In this document: positions 19,107 through 31,029 of the stretch, piece after piece
Layout of the letters: every line of letters begins with the position of its first letter
Position numbering within the stretch: position 1 is the first letter of the stretch
DNA from: an uncultured archaeon
GTDB taxonomy: Archaea; Iainarchaeota; Iainarchaeia; Iainarchaeales; CSSED10-239
Assembly: GCA_964586355.1 (NCBI GenBank)
Contig: CAZPGO010000019.1
Coordinates: forward strand, 5,345-37,344
DNA: 32,000 nt
Direction: 5' to 3'
Made by a program: the position numbers and the translations under genes
Notes under the pieces: generated by a model
Databases searched by the model: none
Told to the model about the DNA's origin: nothing
What the model saw: only the letters and a program-made list of their open reading frames with translations

Positions 19107-19610
19107 GTGATTAAAAGAGCAGTTTCTCCAATAATTAGTGTGATTTTACTTATTTTGGTTGCTGTTATTTTAATAACAATGTTTTTGTTATGGGCAAAGG
19201 TAGAAATAAAAGAAGATCTTCAAAGCTCTAGTGATGCTTTAAGTCCTGCTAGTGATATTGATTGTCTAAATTATAGCTTATCAGTAGACTCTTGTTTGAT
19301 TTACTCTTCTTCAAAAAAAGTTGAGGTTCTTTTAACAAATGCAACATCAATAAGATATTTTGATATCATGTTAACAATAGAAGCAGAGAACCTATCAGAA
19401 GCAAAAGAAAAATGGGTTGGTGTTTTTTCAAATGCATTATTTCCAGGACATAGCAAATTATATAATACTGATACAAATTTCTTATTTACAAAAAAAGAGA
19501 ATTTTACAAATCTAAATTTTAATGAGATCTCTAATATTATTTTAACTAATGGGGCTTGTAAAAGAGAGATCATTAATCTAATTAATATGTGTGAGATTAT
19601 TAATGAATAA
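19107..19610 (+). CDS. Archaeal type IV pilin-like protein (class III signal peptide, DUF1628-type N-terminus)
   Basis: MIKR/AVSPIISVILLILVAVILITMFL matches the archaeal prepilin pattern (K/R, then A, then VSPVIGVIL...). GTG start. The C-terminal domain has 4 Cys and is paralogous to the next gene. Confidence 0.6.
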   Translation: MIKRAVSPIISVILLILVAVILITMFLLWAKVEIKEDLQSSSDALSPASDIDCLNYSLSVDSCLIYSSSKKVEVLLTNATSIRYFDIMLTIEAENLSEAKEKWVGVFSNALFPGHSKLYNTDTNFLFTKKENFTNLNFNEISNIILTNGACKREIINLINMCEIINE

Positions 19611-20100
19611 AAAAGCTTTATCACCAATAATAAGTGTTATTTTAATAATTTTAGTTGCTGTTATATTAATTACTATGTTTTTAACATGGTCAAAGGAATA
19701 TTATAATAATCAGTTAACCAACACTACTGAGCAGCTAAAACGAGCATCAAGTATTGAGTGTGCTAATTCTAAATTAAAAGTTTCTTCTTGTTCTTTTGAT
19801 TCTTTTACTAAGGAGCTTTCTTTATTTTTAATAAATGATTCACAAATAAGATATTTTGATTTTACTTTAACTATAGAAGGAGTTGATCAAACATCTCAAG
19901 AACCAGTTAGACTTTATGGTGTTTTTAATCATATATTGGAGCCAGGAGCTTCTATCAATCTTTTAACAGATAGCAACTTTTTGGTTTTAGATTCTTCTGG
20001 TAATTATGAAAATTTAGATCTAAATAGTGTTTCTCTAATTAACCTAAGTAACGGTGCTTGCAAAAACCAGAACTTTGTTTTAGTGTGTTCTGTTGACTAA
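19603..20100 (+). CDS. Archaeal type IV pilin-like protein, paralog of 19107-19610
   Basis: MNKK/ALSPIISVILIILVAVILITMFL. It shares IRYFD..LTIE and NGACK motifs and the Cys pattern with the upstream gene. ATG 19603 overlaps the upstream stop (AATGAATAA), which suggests translational coupling. Confidence 0.65.
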   Translation: MNKKALSPIISVILIILVAVILITMFLTWSKEYYNNQLTNTTEQLKRASSIECANSKLKVSSCSFDSFTKELSLFLINDSQIRYFDFTLTIEGVDQTSQEPVRLYGVFNHILEPGASINLLTDSNFLVLDSSGNYENLDLNSVSLINLSNGACKNQNFVLVCSVD

Positions 20101-21045: not shown

Positions 21046-21311
21046 TTTTTGTTCGTGCTCCTACAAATATATTTATTTTTAGTTGTTTTTATATATGTTT
21101 GTTTTTTATTTTAGAGTTGTTTTTGCACAATATCTTGGACAAGCCAACTTTTTTTAAAACAAAAAATAGGCATTTAAAAATAGATCCCCGTTTTTAACAA
21201 AAATTACTGATCTAAAAGATCTTACAATATATTTATATTTGTTTTTTAGAATAAGTAGTATAATAATGTTAAAAAATTAACTATGCTTATTTATCTTTGG
21301 AGATCTTATTT

Positions 21312-24300
21312 ATGAAAAAATTATTTTTGTTGTTTTTTTTAATACTTAACCTATCTATGGTATTTAGTCTGACTCCTAATTTCTTTAATAAAGTTAACTA
21401 TTATGATCAAATTATTGATGTTGGTGTTTTAGATAATAACCTTTCAGGAGATTTCTTAAAAATAACACTCTCAGATCAATATGAAACTTATTTTGAAGAG
21501 GCTTTTTCTATTAAAAATAGTAAAAAAATAGATGTTGTTTTTGATAGCTCTGTTTCTTCTTATCTTGTTGCAAACTATGAGGTTTTGGATTCTAATTATT
21601 CTATATTAGAGACCTATTCTTTTCCTTTATTTTTAGAGAGTATAGATCTTGGCAGAATTTTTTTGTGTGATATAAAAGAATGCCATTATTCTGATTCCAA
21701 AAAATATTTTGATAATAGTTCTAAAATCTACCTTAATGTTGATAATAATTTAGATGTTAATTATTCTCTTGATCTTTTTTTAAAAGAAGGAAAAAATTAT
21801 AAACTTTTATTTTCTGAAAGCACACATGTATTTCCTTATTTCTTAGCTATTGATGATTCTGGTTCTTATAAGCTGGTTTTAAGTTATTATTTTGAAGATC
21901 TAATTTTTACTAAAAAAACTTTTTTTGAGATTGGGTCTCTAGAGCCAATTTCTTCTGATAGTTTTTCTGAGAGTAATATTGTATATTCTGATTTTGTGGA
22001 TAGTAATTTAACAGAACCTGTTATAAATAAAAATACTTCTAATGATTCAAATACATTATCAGAGAAAAATTATTTTTTTCAAAATTCAAAAAATATTTTA
22101 GCTTTGCTCTTTATATCTATTATTTTAATTTTGATTTTAATAATTTTATTTACAAGTAAAAATAAAAGATCAAGACATAGAAAAATAGCTTCTTTTTTTG
22201 TAGTTTTTTTTATTTTTTTTAATCTAGGATCTGTTTTTGCAGAATCTGAAAACGTTGTGACTTTGGAAGGTAGTACAAAACTTAATGAGATATTTACTTA
22301 TTATAGAACCCTAAATGCAGCATCTAAAGACATAGTTTTTTCTTTTGAAATTAATGAAAGTCTAGAAGCTAATGACACTTTACTAGATAATTACCAGATT
22401 ATACCTTCTGATGTAGACGACATTTTTAGAGAACCGATATTAGATTTAGAATATTCTAATAGATTTTTAGATTTTGCTGAAATTTATTCTTTGGAAAACA
22501 GATTAGAAACTGTTTATTTTTTTAATATTAATAAAAGTAATTCTACAGAGTATATAAATAATTCTTGTTTTGAAAATATTAGTAATTATTATAAAAGCAT
22601 AGATTTTTTTGGTCAAACAAATATAATAAACGAACAAGAAACTATAAGACAGCTTTTTTTGCCAAGAACTAAACCATATATTGAATCAGAGCTAGAAAAG
22701 TTTGGAGATTCTGATTTTATTAATGATTGTTTTAATTTTTTATTAACTGAAAAAATACTTGTTCCCTATGATATTTTATTATATACAAAAGTGGAGCTAA
22801 AAAACATACCAAAAAATTTTGAGCTTTATATGTCTATTGAAACAATTAATTTTGAACCTCCTTTTTTAACAACAAAAAAACCATTGGATATATTAGTTTC
22901 TTTTAAAAGAACCCCAATAGTTATAGAATCTAGTTATTCTATGCCCTATAACTGCGATAAAGAAAATCTTAGTTATTGTTATATTAATAATTCTGACTTT
23001 GATTCAATTAAATATCTATCAGATACTGGTAGTATAGCAAGTCCAGAGTTTTATAAAAGAATGGATGATTATGCAAGTTATCTTAATAATTTTGATTTAG
23101 TAAAAGATCTATATAGAAAAGAGGTTGATGGAGTTAACATTAAAGATCTGCTCTCCTTTGCAGCAATTAATAGAGAAAATCTTTGTTTTTCTAATGAAAA
23201 AAGAGAATATAATGAATTAATTTTTGATGTAGCAAAGGCCTACAATTTTACAGACGAGCAAGCTTTACAGTTTTGGGCTTTGATTGCTGAGAGATCTAAC
23301 TGTGATATTAATTATGATGATGTTGATAATGATTTGCTTGGTCTTGCACAAATAGATTTAGAGGCATATTATAATCAGTATATTGATCTACATGCTTCTA
23401 TGCATCCATTTTTAAAAGAAGAAGAGTATCTTCAGTATTTAGTTTTAGGAGACTTTAAAGAAATAAATGAAAAAAATATAGCAAAATTTGATGCTGATAA
23501 AGTTATTAGATTTGGTGGGCTTTCTAGTAAAATAAGTAATATGTACTGGTATTATGAATTTCTTATAAAAGCAATAAAAAATAGTAAAGATAAATACGGG
23601 TCTTTAGTTTTGTTTGCAGGAACAGATTATTTAAAAGAAATGACTACTCTTGTTAATTTTTGTGAGAAGTATTATACAGATAACTATCTTGAAAATATCT
23701 ATTATGATTATGAATCTTTTGTGACAGATAATTTAAAAAAAAACTTAAGAAGCATTTTTGTTCTAAGTAGTTTACTGGATAAAAAAGAGTTCTCTTTTAC
23801 TGAAGAGATATGTAAGTATACTGGGGAGCCTGAGTCTATAGTTATGGAATATCCAATAATATATACAAATCTAACTGGCAATTATTGTATAGATAATGGA
23901 TTTGTGCCATCTGTTAATTATCCTAGATACAAAAAAATAGACGGTGTTACTTATCATGGAACTGGTGCTTTACTATATAAATGTGAGGATAATAAGATAT
24001 ATAGCTGTATTCCAGGAACAGAGATCATACAAGAAGTAAGTGGATCTGCAGTAAATATACTTAAAGAAGAGCTTTGTTCTAGAGAGCTAATTCTAAAAGA
24101 AAAAAGAGTTAAGATTTCTAAAGAGTTTAAGGTTTTAATAAATTATCTTGCAATAAAGCACAAATATTTGACTAATAGAGAATATTTTGTTTCTAATGGT
24201 TTTTTAGAAGACTCTTCTAATGACTCAAAGAAATTTCTTGAAAATAAAACAAATTATTTTAAATTGAAATATGATTATTTTGATATTAAAAAAGAGAATT

Positions 24301-25112
24301 TTTTAGAGATCACTGCTGAAAAAAATATTTCTTTGTTAAAAAGAATTGATCCAAATTATTATTTTGCAGAGATTTTACAAAATAGAAGAAGTTTAGCCTA
24401 TGCAAGGTCTGGTAACTGTGCTCAGTTTGTTAGAGAAATTGGAACAAATCTTTTTACTTCAGAGCTTTATCCAAGAGCAGGAGTTTCTGCTGCTTGGTTA
24501 TATGATACTACTCCAACAGTAAAAGAGAGATATAATTTAATTTGGGAATCTCCAATTGTTTGTTATAGTAAACCAGGAAACAGAAAATTACCAAGAAGTC
24601 GTTGTGTTGAGACCCCAGAAGTACAAAGTCCTACTTTAGATTTAGATCTGTTGCCTGATGGTGCGATCTTAGGTCTTTATGTTTGTAAACAAAGTCATGG
24701 GTCTTTAAGAAATCTAGAGTATACACATGTTGGGACCTATATTGGCAAAGATCAACTAGGTCATCATTTGTTTATACATATGGGTAATTCTAGATCTATA
24801 GAGATAATAAGTGAATATACCTCTCACATATGTAGTTCTGGGTATAATAGGCAAATAATGAGAGTCTATGTCCCAAAATCCACAGGAATAACTAGTATGG
24901 ATCAATTAAGGGAATTAAAAGAAAAAGATTTATTACAACCAGTTACCTGGATTAAAGATATTAACGAAGTTATAAATAGATCAAATGGACTAGAATATCC
25001 TGAATTTGGTATTCAAGATGAAGAAGAAATGGATTCTTCTGAATATGAATCAGATGATTCAGAAAGCGAAGATGCAGATCTTGAAGAAAATGCAGAGCAA
25101 GAATCTGAATAA
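21312..25112 (+). CDS. Large (1266 aa from ATG 21312) secreted, membrane-tethered protein with an SLT-like lytic-transglycosylase motif, an NlpC/P60- or CHAP-like cysteine-peptidase motif and an acidic C-terminal tail
   Basis: N-terminal signal peptide MKKLFLLFFLILNLSMVFS. TM hairpin at nt ~22094-22243. FWALIAERSNC...DLLGLAQIDLEAY (nt ~23270-23360) resembles the SLT E-S...GLMQ motif. SGNCAQFVREIG...LPDGAILGLYV...YTHVGTYIGKDQLGHHLFIHMGN (nt ~24410-24790) resembles NlpC/P60 or CHAP Cys...His blocks. The tail is DEEEMDSSEYESDDSESEDADLEENAEQESE. The CDS call is solid. Domain calls are about 0.45. Confidence 0.75.
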   Translation: MKKLFLLFFLILNLSMVFSLTPNFFNKVNYYDQIIDVGVLDNNLSGDFLKITLSDQYETYFEEAFSIKNSKKIDVVFDSSVSSYLVANYEVLDSNYSILETYSFPLFLESIDLGRIFLCDIKECHYSDSKKYFDNSSKIYLNVDNNLDVNYSLDLFLKEGKNYKLLFSESTHVFPYFLAIDDSGSYKLVLSYYFEDLIFTKKTFFEIGSLEPISSDSFSESNIVYSDFVDSNLTEPVINKNTSNDSNTLSEKNYFFQNSKNILALLFISIILILILIILFTSKNKRSRHRKIASFFVVFFIFFNLGSVFAESENVVTLEGSTKLNEIFTYYRTLNAASKDIVFSFEINESLEANDTLLDNYQIIPSDVDDIFREPILDLEYSNRFLDFAEIYSLENRLETVYFFNINKSNSTEYINNSCFENISNYYKSIDFFGQTNIINEQETIRQLFLPRTKPYIESELEKFGDSDFINDCFNFLLTEKILVPYDILLYTKVELKNIPKNFELYMSIETINFEPPFLTTKKPLDILVSFKRTPIVIESSYSMPYNCDKENLSYCYINNSDFDSIKYLSDTGSIASPEFYKRMDDYASYLNNFDLVKDLYRKEVDGVNIKDLLSFAAINRENLCFSNEKREYNELIFDVAKAYNFTDEQALQFWALIAERSNCDINYDDVDNDLLGLAQIDLEAYYNQYIDLHASMHPFLKEEEYLQYLVLGDFKEINEKNIAKFDADKVIRFGGLSSKISNMYWYYEFLIKAIKNSKDKYGSLVLFAGTDYLKEMTTLVNFCEKYYTDNYLENIYYDYESFVTDNLKKNLRSIFVLSSLLDKKEFSFTEEICKYTGEPESIVMEYPIIYTNLTGNYCIDNGFVPSVNYPRYKKIDGVTYHGTGALLYKCEDNKIYSCIPGTEIIQEVSGSAVNILKEELCSRELILKEKRVKISKEFKVLINYLAIKHKYLTNREYFVSNGFLEDSSNDSKKFLENKTNYFKLKYDYFDIKKENFLEITAEKNISLLKRIDPNYYFAEILQNRRSLAYARSGNCAQFVREIGTNLFTSELYPRAGVSAAWLYDTTPTVKERYNLIWESPIVCYSKPGNRKLPRSRCVETPEVQSPTLDLDLLPDGAILGLYVCKQSHGSLRNLEYTHVGTYIGKDQLGHHLFIHMGNSRSIEIISEYTSHICSSGYNRQIMRVYVPKSTGITSMDQLRELKEKDLLQPVTWIKDINEVINRSNGLEYPEFGIQDEEEMDSSEYESDDSESEDADLEENAEQESE

Positions 25113-27145: not shown

Positions 27146-28591
27146 ATGTTTTTAAAAAAATATTCTTTTTTAATCTTAATATTTTTATTTATTTTACACT
27201 CTGTATCAGCAGATTCTGTACTTTTTAATGTTTCTAATTCCACAGAAGCTTCTTTTTTAAATTATCAAACAAAAATAGACCTTAACAGTTCTTTACCTGC
27301 TGATTTTAATTGGGATAATTTAGGTAAAGATCTTTATTTTCAATATAACGATGGTAATAATATTCCTTTTTGGATAGAATCTTGGAATAATTCTGAGCAA
27401 GAAGCAGAAATTTGGTTAAAGATCTCTATTAACCCAGAATCAGAAATAATAGTTAAGATGTTTTATGATGGTGAGTCAGATCTTTCTTTAAGTAATGGTG
27501 ATGCTGTTTTTATTTTTTTTGATGATTTTGAGGAAAATAAAATTATTAATTATTCTCCTACTGGGTTAATAAATGCAGATCAAAATTTAAATATTCCTAC
27601 TTATGATGGAAGTGGTCAAAATGTTCATCCCTCTTTAGTATATTTTGAAGAACCTTTTAATAGTTGGAAATATTGGATGGCAATTACTCCATATGCAGAT
27701 AGTAATGAGGATCTAGAAAACCCTTCAATTGTTGTTTCTAATGATGGAAATACTTGGCAAATACCAGAAGGTCTAACAAACCCTATTATTCCATATCCTG
27801 GTGGTCAAGAGTTTAATTCTGATCCAACTTTATTTTATGATGGAAACAAATTTGTTTTATATTATAGAGAAGGATGTAATATTACAGTTAATGGAGATAA
27901 AATAAAATATGTTTATTCTTATGATGGTATAGAATGGTTACCAAAAGACGACACTGAAATTAATCCTATATTGGTTTTAGAAAAGGCTCAAAATCAATTA
28001 ATTGCACCAACGATTATATTTAAAGATGATATTTATTATATGTGGGTTGTGGAAGTTGATACAGATAATCCCCCATCAAGATTAGTAAGATATAGTTCTG
28101 ATGATGGGATTAATTGGGAAGATGTTGCTCATCCAAAAATAAATACTAATATTTCTGGCTTTGTTGATAATAATTTGCATATTTGGCATCCAGAAATAAA
28201 ATATATTCCTGAATTTCAAGAATATTGGATGATAACATCAGCATACCCTTATGACTATGGTGTTGGAACATCTTCTGATACTTATTTTGCAAGAAGTGTT
28301 GATGGTATTAACTGGACTGTCTATACTGATTACAAATTACTTGCAAAAAAGTTAGGTTCTTGGGATAGTAGAGGAATATATAAATCAACATTTTTATTTG
28401 ATGAAACAACAAACAAAATCAGAGTTTGGTATTCTGCAACAAAAACAGGATTTCCTATTTTGTGGAATACTGGTTATACTGAAGAAGATTATAATTTAGT
28501 TTTAAAAAGATTAGATAGTAATTTAGTAAAATGGCATTTTTCAATCAAGGTGCACAAGGTGCAACAGCTAATATTTCTTCAGGGGTTATAG
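27146..28591 (+). CDS. Secreted protein: DUF2341-like domain followed by a beta-propeller glycoside-hydrolase-like domain. Probably the N-terminal part of a frameshifted larger gene.
   Basis: Signal peptide MFLKKYSFLILIFLFILHSVSA. IPFWIESWNNSEQEAEIWLKISI is typical of DUF2341. NVHPSLVYFEEPFNSWKYWMAITPYADSNEDLENPSIVVSNDGNTW and repeated W/DG motifs resemble five-bladed propeller GH-like proteins. The last ~17 aa look like out-of-frame read-through. Confidence 0.65.
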   Translation: MFLKKYSFLILIFLFILHSVSADSVLFNVSNSTEASFLNYQTKIDLNSSLPADFNWDNLGKDLYFQYNDGNNIPFWIESWNNSEQEAEIWLKISINPESEIIVKMFYDGESDLSLSNGDAVFIFFDDFEENKIINYSPTGLINADQNLNIPTYDGSGQNVHPSLVYFEEPFNSWKYWMAITPYADSNEDLENPSIVVSNDGNTWQIPEGLTNPIIPYPGGQEFNSDPTLFYDGNKFVLYYREGCNITVNGDKIKYVYSYDGIEWLPKDDTEINPILVLEKAQNQLIAPTIIFKDDIYYMWVVEVDTDNPPSRLVRYSSDDGINWEDVAHPKINTNISGFVDNNLHIWHPEIKYIPEFQEYWMITSAYPYDYGVGTSSDTYFARSVDGINWTVYTDYKLLAKKLGSWDSRGIYKSTFLFDETTNKIRVWYSATKTGFPILWNTGYTEEDYNLVLKRLDSNLVKWHFSIKVHKVQQLIFLQGL

Positions 28592-31029
28592 AGCTCCAAG
28601 CAAATCCAGATTCTGATTCTAGTTCAAATATCAGAAGTTCTAAAAACATAATAACAAACAATATAATTGTTGAAGTAAAACAGAAAATAACAGATGATTT
28701 TTATGTTAATACCTCAATAGGTGATCTTTCAACTAATGGGGATTTGTGTTATAGTGCTACTAATCCTGACAATTATTGGAATACCTTTCTTTGTTATGGG
28801 TATCTTTTTGGAGGGTGGAGTTCAAAATTTAATTTATATCGTATGATTGGAAATGGAGAGAAAATTCCATTAAATAATCCTCCATCTGTTTCTCAACAAA
28901 CACACATTTTTTCAAAAACAAAATATGTTTATACAGCTAATGGGATTACAAAATGGTATTTAAATAATGAATTAAAAACAACGGGGTCTGCTGATATAGA
29001 ATATTTAAATACAAACAAATATTTGTTATTATCTCAAGGAGGGCATAATACTGGAGCAGGAGGAACAAGAACAATTGATTATGTTTTTGTTAGAGAATTT
29101 TCTGATGTTGACTTAAATATTGTTAATTTAGACGAACAAATTTCTTCAAATGTTATTTTTAACATTTTAAATTATGATCACAATTGGATTAATCAAGATA
29201 TTAGTTTAAATTTTGTTGTTGATAATAATAGTAGTTTAGATTATAATTTATTTTATAGAATAGATCTTTCTAATTGGCAACCATTTGTATTTGAAAATGA
29301 ATTATTATTTAATAGTGATGGAAATTATCAAATTGATTTTTATGCAAGAGATAATAGCTTAGATTTTAATGAATCAATTAATACTGTTTTTGTAGCAATT
29401 GATAAAACAGAGCCCATAATTACTGAAATAGATAACAACGGTGTTTGGTTTACAGAAGACTTTAATATTTCTTTTGATGTTAATTTTGATATTTCTGGCA
29501 AGTCTGAAGCAAAATATAAATTGAATGACTCTGAGTCTTGGGTCGATTTTACAGATGGCTATGATATTTTAATTGATGTTGATGGCAACAACACTATTGA
29601 TTACTATTTTAGAGACTTTGCAGGAAATGATACCAACGGAACTGTTTATGGTTTATTGGATAAGAGCTCTCCAGTAATCCACTCTATAGACAATAACAAC
29701 ATTTGGTTTACAGAAGATTTTAATATTTCTTTTGATGTTAATTTTGATATTTCAGGTAAGTCTGAAGCAAAATATAAATTGAATGACTCTGAGTCTTGGG
29801 TCGATTTTACAGATGGCTATGATATTTTAATTGATGTTGATGGCAACAACATTATTGATTACTATTTTAGAGACTTTGCAGGAAATGATGCCAACGGAAC
29901 TGTTTATGGTTTATTGGATAGTATTACTCCAGTAATAATTGATCAAAATTGGACTTCTCCAGTAAATAATTATTCTTTTTCTACAACTACTTTAACTTTA
30001 TCTGGGAGATTTACAACAAGTGATGTTAATAAAGAAGACCTCTCTCTAATTTCTAATGTTTTGTTTTCTATAAACAATAATGACTGGATAGAAACTAATC
30101 TAGATTATTATTCAGAAACAAATCTTTATTCTTGGACTTATACTTATACACACAATTTTAGTCAAACTACTGATTTTAATGTTTATCTTAAATATCAAGA
30201 TCTTGCTGGAAATGATTCAAATGTTCTTACTAGAGCTATAACCTATACAAAATCCAACAACCCCCCTTCCGGTGGTGGAAGATCTGGAGGCTCTAGTTTT
30301 ATTTATGTGCCATCTGGATCTGATTCAACAGATGACCATGAATCAGAAAGCAATCTTTTAACAATTACAAATAAAGAATCTGATTCTAATTTAGTAAATA
30401 ATTCTGTTAATGTTTCTTTTGTTTTAGATAATGTGGTTAATTCACAAAAAAAGAATTTAGATGATGTTATTTCTAAAAAAAATATTTCTAAAGAAATAAA
30501 AATAGATAGAATCATAAAAACAGATAACATTCCTGTATTTTCTTTAGAAATTAGAAATGATTCTCCACAATCTTATAAAGATCTATCTATTATAGAAGTT
30601 ATTCCTAAAGAAATAATTGATCATATTGATAATTTAGTATTTTCCATAGAACCAACAAATATTATCAATCCAGATCCAATAGTTGAATGGAAGATAAATG
30701 AACTAGAAAGCGGAGGTTTTTTTAAGATAAACTATGCTTTAAAAGAAGATAAAAATATTGATTATTCTGTATTCTCAAAATGGCAGTTGCCTTTGATATT
30801 TGCAGAAGATTTTTTAGATGTGGATTCTAATTATCAAGATATAGAGCCAGTAGTTGAAGTTTTGAAAAAAGAAGTTGTTTTAGATGATCCAAATAAAAAA
30901 ATAACTCCTATTTATGATATTAAAGAAAAAAATATTTTGTCTTGGTTAGGTATTTTTTCTATAATAATATTACTATTTTTTATTATTTTTAATAATAGAC
31001 CTAAAAACAAAAAAAGTTCAAGAAAATGA
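28531..31029 (+). CDS. Surface protein: LamG/ConA-like jelly-roll, four Ig-like domains with D-x-AGND motifs, a Gly/Ser linker and a C-terminal TM anchor. It lacks its own signal peptide.
   Basis: GATANISSGVIELQA...TIDYVFVREF is typical of the LamG domain that follows DUF2341. Repeated ...YYFRDFAGND / YARDNS / YQDLAGND modules. Linker PPSGGGRSGGSS. C-terminus ILSWLGIFSIIILLFFIIFNNRPKNKKSSRK. Confidence 0.65.
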   Translation: MAFFNQGAQGATANISSGVIELQANPDSDSSSNIRSSKNIITNNIIVEVKQKITDDFYVNTSIGDLSTNGDLCYSATNPDNYWNTFLCYGYLFGGWSSKFNLYRMIGNGEKIPLNNPPSVSQQTHIFSKTKYVYTANGITKWYLNNELKTTGSADIEYLNTNKYLLLSQGGHNTGAGGTRTIDYVFVREFSDVDLNIVNLDEQISSNVIFNILNYDHNWINQDISLNFVVDNNSSLDYNLFYRIDLSNWQPFVFENELLFNSDGNYQIDFYARDNSLDFNESINTVFVAIDKTEPIITEIDNNGVWFTEDFNISFDVNFDISGKSEAKYKLNDSESWVDFTDGYDILIDVDGNNTIDYYFRDFAGNDTNGTVYGLLDKSSPVIHSIDNNNIWFTEDFNISFDVNFDISGKSEAKYKLNDSESWVDFTDGYDILIDVDGNNIIDYYFRDFAGNDANGTVYGLLDSITPVIIDQNWTSPVNNYSFSTTTLTLSGRFTTSDVNKEDLSLISNVLFSINNNDWIETNLDYYSETNLYSWTYTYTHNFSQTTDFNVYLKYQDLAGNDSNVLTRAITYTKSNNPPSGGGRSGGSSFIYVPSGSDSTDDHESESNLLTITNKESDSNLVNNSVNVSFVLDNVVNSQKKNLDDVISKKNISKEIKIDRIIKTDNIPVFSLEIRNDSPQSYKDLSIIEVIPKEIIDHIDNLVFSIEPTNIINPDPIVEWKINELESGGFFKINYALKEDKNIDYSVFSKWQLPLIFAEDFLDVDSNYQDIEPVVEVLKKEVVLDDPNKKITPIYDIKEKNILSWLGIFSIIILLFFIIFNNRPKNKKSSRK
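29428..29943 (+). repeat. Tandem duplication of a 258-nt (86-aa) Ig-like module. The core copies at 29446-29662 and 29704-29920 are nearly identical.
   Basis: Direct comparison shows about five substitutions across the ~217-nt core (gac/gat, tctggc/tcaggt, act/att, acc/gcc). The period is exactly 258 nt, in frame. Confidence 0.9.

Follow-up and report, generated by a model that had tools for sequence, protein, structure and literature searches.

A putative membrane-anchored surface protein of an uncultured Iainarchaeota archaeon with a candidate NlpC/P60-like peptidase domain

The stretch of DNA analysed here (hereafter the window) covers 32,000 nt of contig CAZPGO010000019.1 from an uncultured archaeon of the Iainarchaeota, and carries on its forward strand a gene for a large putative surface protein whose C-terminal domain is the main subject of this report. 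The open reading frame (ORF) runs from a TTG at 21297 to 25112 and codes for 1271 amino acids (aa), or for 1266 aa from the first ATG at 21312. In the alignment the orthologs begin at the Met of ATG 21312, and this codon was therefore taken as the gene start, so that the whole gene (1266 aa plus stop) occupies 21312..25112. All residues are numbered from this start; E660 (codon 23289-23291) and C1036 (codon 24417-24419) are E665 and C1041 when counted from the TTG. An earlier note, made from the sequence without database searches, had described an archaeal, membrane-tethered protein that combines a lytic transglycosylase (SLT)-like and an NlpC/P60-like signature with an acidic tail. The ORF, the motif strings quoted there and the positions of the Glu and Cys codons are present as it had claimed. 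It had also seen no recognisable family in the N-terminal and central sequence, which in fact applies to the entire protein: single-sequence searches returned no Pfam, NCBIfam or PDB sequence match, and a PHROG search with the protein was without a match.

The family to which the protein belongs numbers about 25 members, all of them from Iainarchaeota/Diapherotrites (DPANN) genomes. A word-indexed search of 5.8 billion clusters yielded six proteins, ten were retrieved when 1.84 billion representatives were scanned exhaustively by HMMER with a profile of aa 560-1232, and a second search with P0009 as the seed added nine further proteins; a distant relative of 1275 aa, L016, came from a genome scan. 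The 5.8 billion clusters gave no more than 6 + 11 proteins altogether. Named relatives derive from 'Candidatus ainarchaeum sp.', 'Candidatus Diapherotrites archaeon' and 'Candidatus Iainarchaeum' metagenome-assembled genomes. L016 (1069-4896 on its contig) differs greatly from the other members in its N-terminal half, and the protein has no Pfam match. According to the alignment, the long-form clade (P0001-P0006) is marked by an N-terminal ectodomain and a transmembrane (TM) hairpin, and the short-form clade begins with a signal peptide which aligns with the second hydrophobic segment of the long form. The C-terminus varies as well. It is a short acidic tail in the window protein, P0002-5, P0007/8 and P0021-23, a true Pfam NlpC/P60 domain (PF00877; E 2e-8 and 4e-9) in P0006, P0011 and P0017-20, and a second copy of an all-alpha module in P0009, P0010, P0015 and P0016. 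P0009 and P0017 are tandem paralogs on one Iainarchaeota-like contig (L004, 1082-8249). The real PF00877 domains of P0006, P0011 and P0017-20, together with the tandem arrangement of P0009 and P0017, tie the family to wall hydrolysis.

Nine features were delineated along the window protein, all on the forward strand. An N-terminal signal-peptide-like hydrophobic segment (aa 1-20; 21312..21371), apparent from hydropathy and conserved in the long-form clade, is followed by the clade-specific N-terminal ectodomain (aa 21-255; 21372..22076), which is found in P0001-P0006 only and has no family match. The putative membrane hairpin (22095..22238), delineated by hydropathy and alignment, consists of a strong TM segment (TM1, aa 262-283) and a second hydrophobic segment (aa 291-309, ending in SVFA/ES), with the basic loop KNKRSRHRK between them. 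Next comes a module conserved in all family members (aa 310-590; 22239..23081), with no Pfam match, and then the all-alpha 'SLT-like' module (aa 600-835; 23109..23816), which was recognised by conservation and in the structure model and contains W655, E660, S662, N663, C664 and G677-L-A-Q680 (23340-23351). A Cys-rich mini-domain (aa ~860-925; 23889..24086) leads to a conserved helical linker (aa 926-1025; 24087..24386), which contains KISKEFKVLINYLAIKHKY and was drawn from the alignment and the model. The NlpC/P60-like, probably papain-fold domain spans aa ~1030-1200 (24399..24911), with a proposed triad of C1036, H1139 (24726-24728) and H1156 (24777-24779), and was assigned by hhalign, models and conservation. 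The protein closes with a D/E/S-rich tail (aa 1233-1266; 25008..25109), at the place where paralogs carry their true NlpC/P60 domain or second alpha-module. The acidic character noted before is evident from composition, since the final 40 aa contain 20 D/E and no K/R.

The Cys-rich mini-domain is about 70 aa long (NYP...G.TY.G.G.L.YKC....C.PGT) and lies after the alpha-module in the long-form clade. In several short-form relatives a homolog is located inside the alpha-module, past G-F-x-Q (hhalign probability 96.7%, E 4e-10; aa ~400-470 of P0009), so that the mini-domain behaves like a mobile insert module.

The membrane tethering proposed in the earlier note is borne out by the hydropathy profile, with its signal-like segment, TM segment at ~262-283, basic loop and segment 291-309. 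From these elements we infer a topology of signal peptide, first ectodomain, TM hairpin with a cytoplasmic basic loop, and large conserved ectodomain, which is supported by the alignment of the second hydrophobic segment of the long form with the signal peptide of the short form. A gene fusion or assembly artefact as the cause of the internal signal-like segment was ruled out, because the ORF is continuous in six orthologs from different samples. The protein (21312-25109) contains 22 N-x-S/T sequons, against ~13.5 expected from its composition, and 19 cysteines, many of which are invariant across the family; these numbers fit a glycosylated, disulfide-bonded extracellular protein.

Within the C-terminal domain, the block LLPDGAILG / THVGTYIGK / FIHMG, which holds H1139 and H1156, aligns in register with NlpC/P60 profiles in hhalign. 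In every alignment LLPDGAILG is placed opposite l-x-pGDLv, THVGTYIGK opposite HVGIYiG, and FIHMG opposite fIHA. The P value was 8e-4 against the Pfam-verified PF00877 tails of the family itself, 2.7e-4 against an independent profile of E. coli MepS/NlpC/MepH/YafL, and 7e-5 (probability 63%) against both profiles combined. None of 60 column shuffles (median 13.1, maximum 19.8) attained the hhalign score of 35.9, and reversed and unrelated-module controls scored 12-21. The values remained similar when L016 was added to the profile; this relative is without the ~35-aa Cys-rich insertion between the two halves of the domain, and keeps C...H...H at near-canonical spacing. H1139 is conserved in 17 of the 20 members, and position 1156 is occupied by H, E or Q. 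These comparisons demonstrate, as far as sequence profiles go, a remote likeness of the His-His half to NlpC/P60. A permuted arrangement of the YaeF/YiiX type (PF05708, C92), with C1125 or C1174 as the nucleophile, was rejected, because both cysteines occur in the long form only and are absent from the short-form relatives.

The window domain thus shares with the NlpC/P60 family (PF00877, MEROPS C40; E. coli MepS/Spr, MepH, NlpC and YafL) the proposed order Cys, His, His/Glu and the common block l-x-p-G-D-l ... H-V-G-x-Y-x-G ... f-I-H. A predicted extracellular location is a further likeness, and paralogs of the window protein carry bona fide PF00877 domains. In contrast to known NlpC/P60 domains, the window domain has D-G for G-D in its LLPDGAIL motif, carries the Cys-containing insertion of ~35 aa, which brings the Cys-to-His distance to 103 aa, and forms part of a protein of 1266 aa that also has a putative TM hairpin and modules of no known family.

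AlphaFold predictions gave a mean predicted local distance difference test (pLDDT) value of 48 from 6 sequences and of 53 from 16 sequences (model 2), the latter reaching 60-87 over the aa ~1030-1200 domain. In model 2 a helix starts exactly at C1036, and H1139 and H1156 lie on consecutive strands, as in NlpC/P60. When both models, which had been built independently, were compared with the PDB by Foldseek, the top ranks were taken by staphopains A/B/C, USP25/28 and other papain-fold cysteine peptidases (E 0.17-0.5); a Foldseek search of viral structures gave no meaningful match. The ranking of staphopains (MEROPS C47, clan CA) and deubiquitinases, and not of NlpC/P60 structures, would be expected if the domain were a papain-fold protease acting on proteins, such as S-layer or surface proteins of a host or of the cell itself, or in self-processing, and if the family were no wall hydrolase at all. 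The Cys-to-His spacing is likewise nearer to that of papain and staphopain than to the ~50 aa of MepS, and murein is absent from archaea. But the long spacing stems from the insertion that L016 does without, the Foldseek matches, with E 0.17-0.35 for the staphopains and other clan CA peptidases, are non-significant and come from low-confidence models, and the staphopains, which are secreted proteases acting on proteins, show no sequence similarity to the window domain, whose sole sequence-level similarity is the His-His block of NlpC/P60. In addition, the Cys is replaced in paralogs that gained a true NlpC/P60 domain or a second alpha-module, suggesting an equivalent function of the old and new domains. 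A protease of this kind therefore appears improbable.

The distribution of C1036 in the family is patterned. C-H-H or C-H-E is present in each of the ten proteins that carry no extra C-terminal domain, and nine of the ten with an added NlpC/P60 or second alpha-module tail have Pro in place of C1036, three of these nine being also without both His residues (Q, Q). The tandem pair follows this pattern: P0009, with its extra alpha-module tail, has lost all three triad residues, and P0017, with its true NlpC/P60 tail, has lost the Cys. P0020 represents an intermediate, in which the tail is present and the Cys is still there. The association between Cys and tail has a Fisher p of 1.2e-4 with phylogeny ignored, and at least two independent Cys losses can be placed on a neighbour-joining tree, one in P0006 of the long clade and one in a short-clade group. 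That the Cys disappeared only from proteins with an added substitute hydrolase domain speaks for a role in catalysis. The sequence of P0006 has diverged far more around the lost Cys than elsewhere in the domain, which agrees with a relaxation of selection once catalysis had been lost. When the clade-specific cysteines are paired, C1036 appears in both clades as the odd cysteine, probably unpaired, and a conserved free thiol in an extracellular domain would be unusual unless functional. The earlier note had made its reading depend on conservation of the catalytic residues among orthologs; C1036 does vary, but in the patterned way described above.

The same data were considered for a protein in which neither domain is catalytic, that is, an adhesin or structural surface protein (pseudoenzyme) whose conserved residues serve folding or binding. 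Neither domain has a significant family match, the Glu position of the alpha-module is not fixed across the wider family, and half of the family is without the Cys while the rest of the domain is well conserved, which shows that the fold has a value apart from catalysis. What this reading leaves without explanation is the complete C-H-H or C-H-E in every member that has no other hydrolase domain, the apparently unpaired state of C1036 outside the cell, and the decay of the P0006 sequence specifically near the lost Cys, and we regard it as very improbable.

We read the C-terminal domain (aa ~1030-1200), which would lie in a membrane-anchored and mostly extracellular protein, as a cysteine peptidase or amidase with a papain fold, of NlpC/P60 type but highly diverged, and give this reading a probability of roughly 0.55. 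Several results weigh against this interpretation. No Pfam, NCBIfam, PHROG or PDB sequence-profile match was significant for the domain, which thus falls below every Pfam and PDB sequence threshold; PF00877 was matched neither by the window protein nor by the equivalent domain of 16 relatives, per-member Pfam voting giving nothing consistent, and a single sub-threshold match to Peptidase_C92 was confined to P0006. PDB profile searches with alignments of 6, 14 and 5 sequences were empty. No Foldseek/PDB match of either model had an E below 0.17, and the overall confidence of the models is low. The Cys half, when compared alone with NlpC/P60 in hhalign, did no better than shuffles (best local match CAQFV/CSGFV, P 0.3) and hence is not statistically alignable, and a low-confidence hhalign extension sets D1065-T1066 opposite the canonical D-C. 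Few independent evolutionary events stand behind the correlation of Cys and tail. From these comparisons we infer the fold, the part of C1036 in catalysis and the biological role of the protein; its topology and its substrate are inferred entirely.

The alternative register was not adopted, because it accounts neither for the pattern in which C1036 was lost nor for the helix that begins at this residue. On visual comparison, C-A-x-[FY]-V ... Y-P-R/x-[AT]-G-A looks similar to C-S-G-[FL]-V ... L-P-R-T-[AS], with a spacing of 19-21 against 18 residues. Given the Cys half and the competing register, the proposal of C1036 as the nucleophile draws only on helix position, conservation pattern and this motif resemblance. 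Therefore, of the NlpC/P60-like signature described by the earlier note, the His-His block stands in register, and the predicted secondary structure and the non-significant papain-fold ranks agree with it, but its Cys half has not gained statistical support; the NlpC/P60 reading overall is moderately supported.

The SLT-like part of the earlier description fared less well. In the 20 central modules W655, E660, S662, N663, C664, G677 and Q680 are invariant, and G677-L-A-Q680 provides a GLMQ-type motif ~17 residues past the Glu. The relaxed pattern E-x-S...G-[LIVF]-x-Q would be expected ~0.03 times by chance at this length and composition, as estimated from composition. The module has clear homologs (hhalign 98.6%, E 1.4e-15) in the C-terminal add-ons of P0009/10/15/16, in the 309-aa P0012 and at the C-terminus of P0013, and these read A-[AQ]-E-S-G ... 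G-[IV]-[AG]-Q, with a canonical-looking E-S. In the window protein (E660-R661-S662) R661 stands opposite the Glu of the paralogous E-S and E660 lies one residue upstream, and the equivalent site of L016 reads A-Q-T-S-E, so that the acidic residue is not positionally fixed in the wider family. P0012, a distant homolog, has a weak match to Phage_lysozyme2 (PF18013; 13.7 bits, E 0.075) exactly over ES...GIAQ. None of ~25 modules had a Pfam SLT match, even with E values of up to 10 admitted, and PDB profile searches with the alpha-module were empty. Against a thin reference profile of four E. coli enzymes (Slt, MltD, MltC and EmtA), hhalign placed E-S and G-x-x-Q in register with P values of 0.045, 0.092 and 0.031, and 0/48, 1/48 and 0/48 shuffles reached the respective scores. 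The module is predicted as all-alpha, with E660 at the C-terminal end of a helix and pLDDT <50 past the first three helices; there was no lysozyme-like structure among the Foldseek/PDB matches, and a third motif of the A-Y-N-x-G type is not visible in the alignment. Compared with SLT and goose-type lysozymes (PF01464, GH23; Slt70, MltC, MltD, EmtA), the module is thus alike in its Glu and Ser at a helix end, in its G-[LF]-x-Q ~17 residues on and in its all-alpha prediction, but has E-R-S instead of E-S, with the Glu shifted by one residue relative to the paralogs, and is without the third motif and without a significant profile or fold match.

These observations bear on the possibility that the protein is a bifunctional wall degrader, with an active lytic transglycosylase of the SLT/goose-type lysozyme class built on E660 and an active NlpC/P60 peptidase. 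The invariance of E660, S662 and G677..Q680 in 20/20 central modules, the helix-end Glu, the homologous modules with canonical motifs (standalone or as added C-terminal domains), the PF18013 match of P0012 and hhalign registers that shuffles rarely equalled would all agree with such an enzyme. The paralogs add the alpha-module or a true NlpC/P60 domain as if these were interchangeable wall-hydrolase modules, and large SLT-domain surface proteins exist in other DPANN lineages (PMC8204110). Against it are the lack of any Pfam, PDB profile or lysozyme-like Foldseek match, with low pLDDT over most of the module, the missing third motif, hhalign P values that are not significant, and the Arg that aligns with the canonical Glu, besides A-Q-T-S-E in L016. 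The displaced Glu weakens the SLT reading for the window protein in particular. On the basis of the sequence, an SLT domain is possible but not shown; the likeness to E. coli SLT is marginal, and the two-activity architecture proposed earlier is unproven, as its SLT half is without a confirmed match. We consider a bifunctional degrader doubtful.

Housekeeping genes surround the gene in the window. Genes for archaeal elongation factor 2 (aEF-2), serine hydroxymethyltransferase, ThyX, 1-deoxy-D-xylulose 5-phosphate (DXP) reductoisomerase, an archaeal-type D-aminoacyl-tRNA deacylase (DTD2) and the RuBisCO large subunit are among its neighbours, as is a gene for a DHH protein. Two adjacent small pilin-like ORFs (19107-19610 and 19591-20100, +) with weak matches to archaeal type IV pilin N-termini (PF07790, E 0.003-0.01) directly precede the DHH gene and the large surface-protein gene, and may form with the latter a cell-surface gene neighbourhood. 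Identical copies of the gene occur on contigs of three different samples. A tblastn search of phage genomes with P0012 and the alpha-module gave nothing, or E about 9. The archaeal origin that had been suggested is supported by the archaeal pilin N-termini, by the aEF-2, DTD2 and RuBisCO neighbours, and by the source names of the relatives; the gene thus belongs to the chromosome of a DPANN archaeon (Iainarchaeota/Diapherotrites) and is neither a phage gene nor an assembly artefact.

Some of the neighbouring genes have features of their own. The RuBisCO large-subunit gene (PF02788 and PF00016; 25128-26588, -) is convergent with the surface-protein gene and is located 16 bp past its stop. The DXP reductoisomerase gene (PF02670; 11339-12451, +) codes for an enzyme of the bacterial-type methylerythritol phosphate isoprenoid pathway in an archaeal genome; bacterial isoprenoid synthesis genes have been described in some DPANN by Castelle et al. 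(PMC8204110). Downstream of the surface-protein gene, positions 27146-31029 (+) code for a 481-aa DUF2341 protein and an overlapping ORF of 832 aa without a family match. On contig L001 there are two gene calls (306 and 511 aa) downstream of the DUF2341 gene, and assemblies or gene calls may differ here by a frameshift. The ThyX ORF (PF02511; 15724-17247, +) is 507 aa long. The usual length of ThyX is about half of this, and the ORF may represent a duplicated or fused form.

If the C-terminal domain is indeed a diverged NlpC/P60-kind enzyme, C1036, at the start of a helix, would be the nucleophile, H1139 in the THVGTYIGK strand the general base, and H1156 in the FIHMG strand the third, orienting residue, with the insertion of ~35 aa, probably bearing a disulfide, between the Cys and His halves. 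The peptidase would cut peptide stems or cross-links in the wall of a neighbouring cell or a host, which could consist of bacterial murein or perhaps of archaeal pseudomurein, and such cutting might serve attachment, access or scavenging. A wall polymer is the most economical candidate for the substrate, because paralogs add true NlpC/P60 domains or alpha-modules at the same end of the protein and then lose the old Cys. The upstream alpha-module (aa ~600-835, E-R-S...GLAQ) is family-specific and may be a remote lysozyme-like domain that binds or cleaves glycan. A bolder extension would see the whole protein as a membrane-anchored wall-breaching device of two enzymes, a glycan-cleaving lysozyme-like module with shifted Glu and an NlpC/P60-like stem-peptide peptidase, both too diverged for any present family model to recognise, in a lineage that 're-arms' itself with fresh hydrolase domains while the old site decays; we hold this to be unlikely.

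Pacearchaeota and Woesearchaeota encode large extracellular proteins with an SLT domain, for which an action on bacterial walls has been proposed (PMC8204110), and the statement in the earlier note that some DPANN genomes encode murein-degrading enzymes is correct for other lineages. Those proteins are likewise giant and extracellular, and have been proposed to bind or degrade the walls of other organisms. They differ from the present family in having a recognisable SLT domain and in belonging to other DPANN lineages; in this Iainarchaeota/Diapherotrites family no SLT domain is detectable, and the best-supported enzymatic part is a domain of the peptidase type. In the literature, no paper was found that connects DPANN or Diapherotrites with NlpC. 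We see here no new kind of system, and place the family as a very rare, unannotated and highly diverged version of the DPANN extracellular wall-hydrolase theme.

The general view is that DPANN archaea live on other cells; for Iainarchaeota/Diapherotrites, little is known about the hosts or about how contact with them is made. The family draws attention to a group of 'hypothetical proteins' overlooked by existing profile libraries, and it shows the decay of a putative catalytic site coupled to the gain of a replacement domain. Should the two-enzyme device prove true, it would suggest that the hosts or prey of this DPANN group are bacteria, or archaea with walls of pseudomurein. If the family is a surface-anchored wall peptidase, it would offer a concrete handle on what Iainarchaeota/Diapherotrites attach to or feed on.

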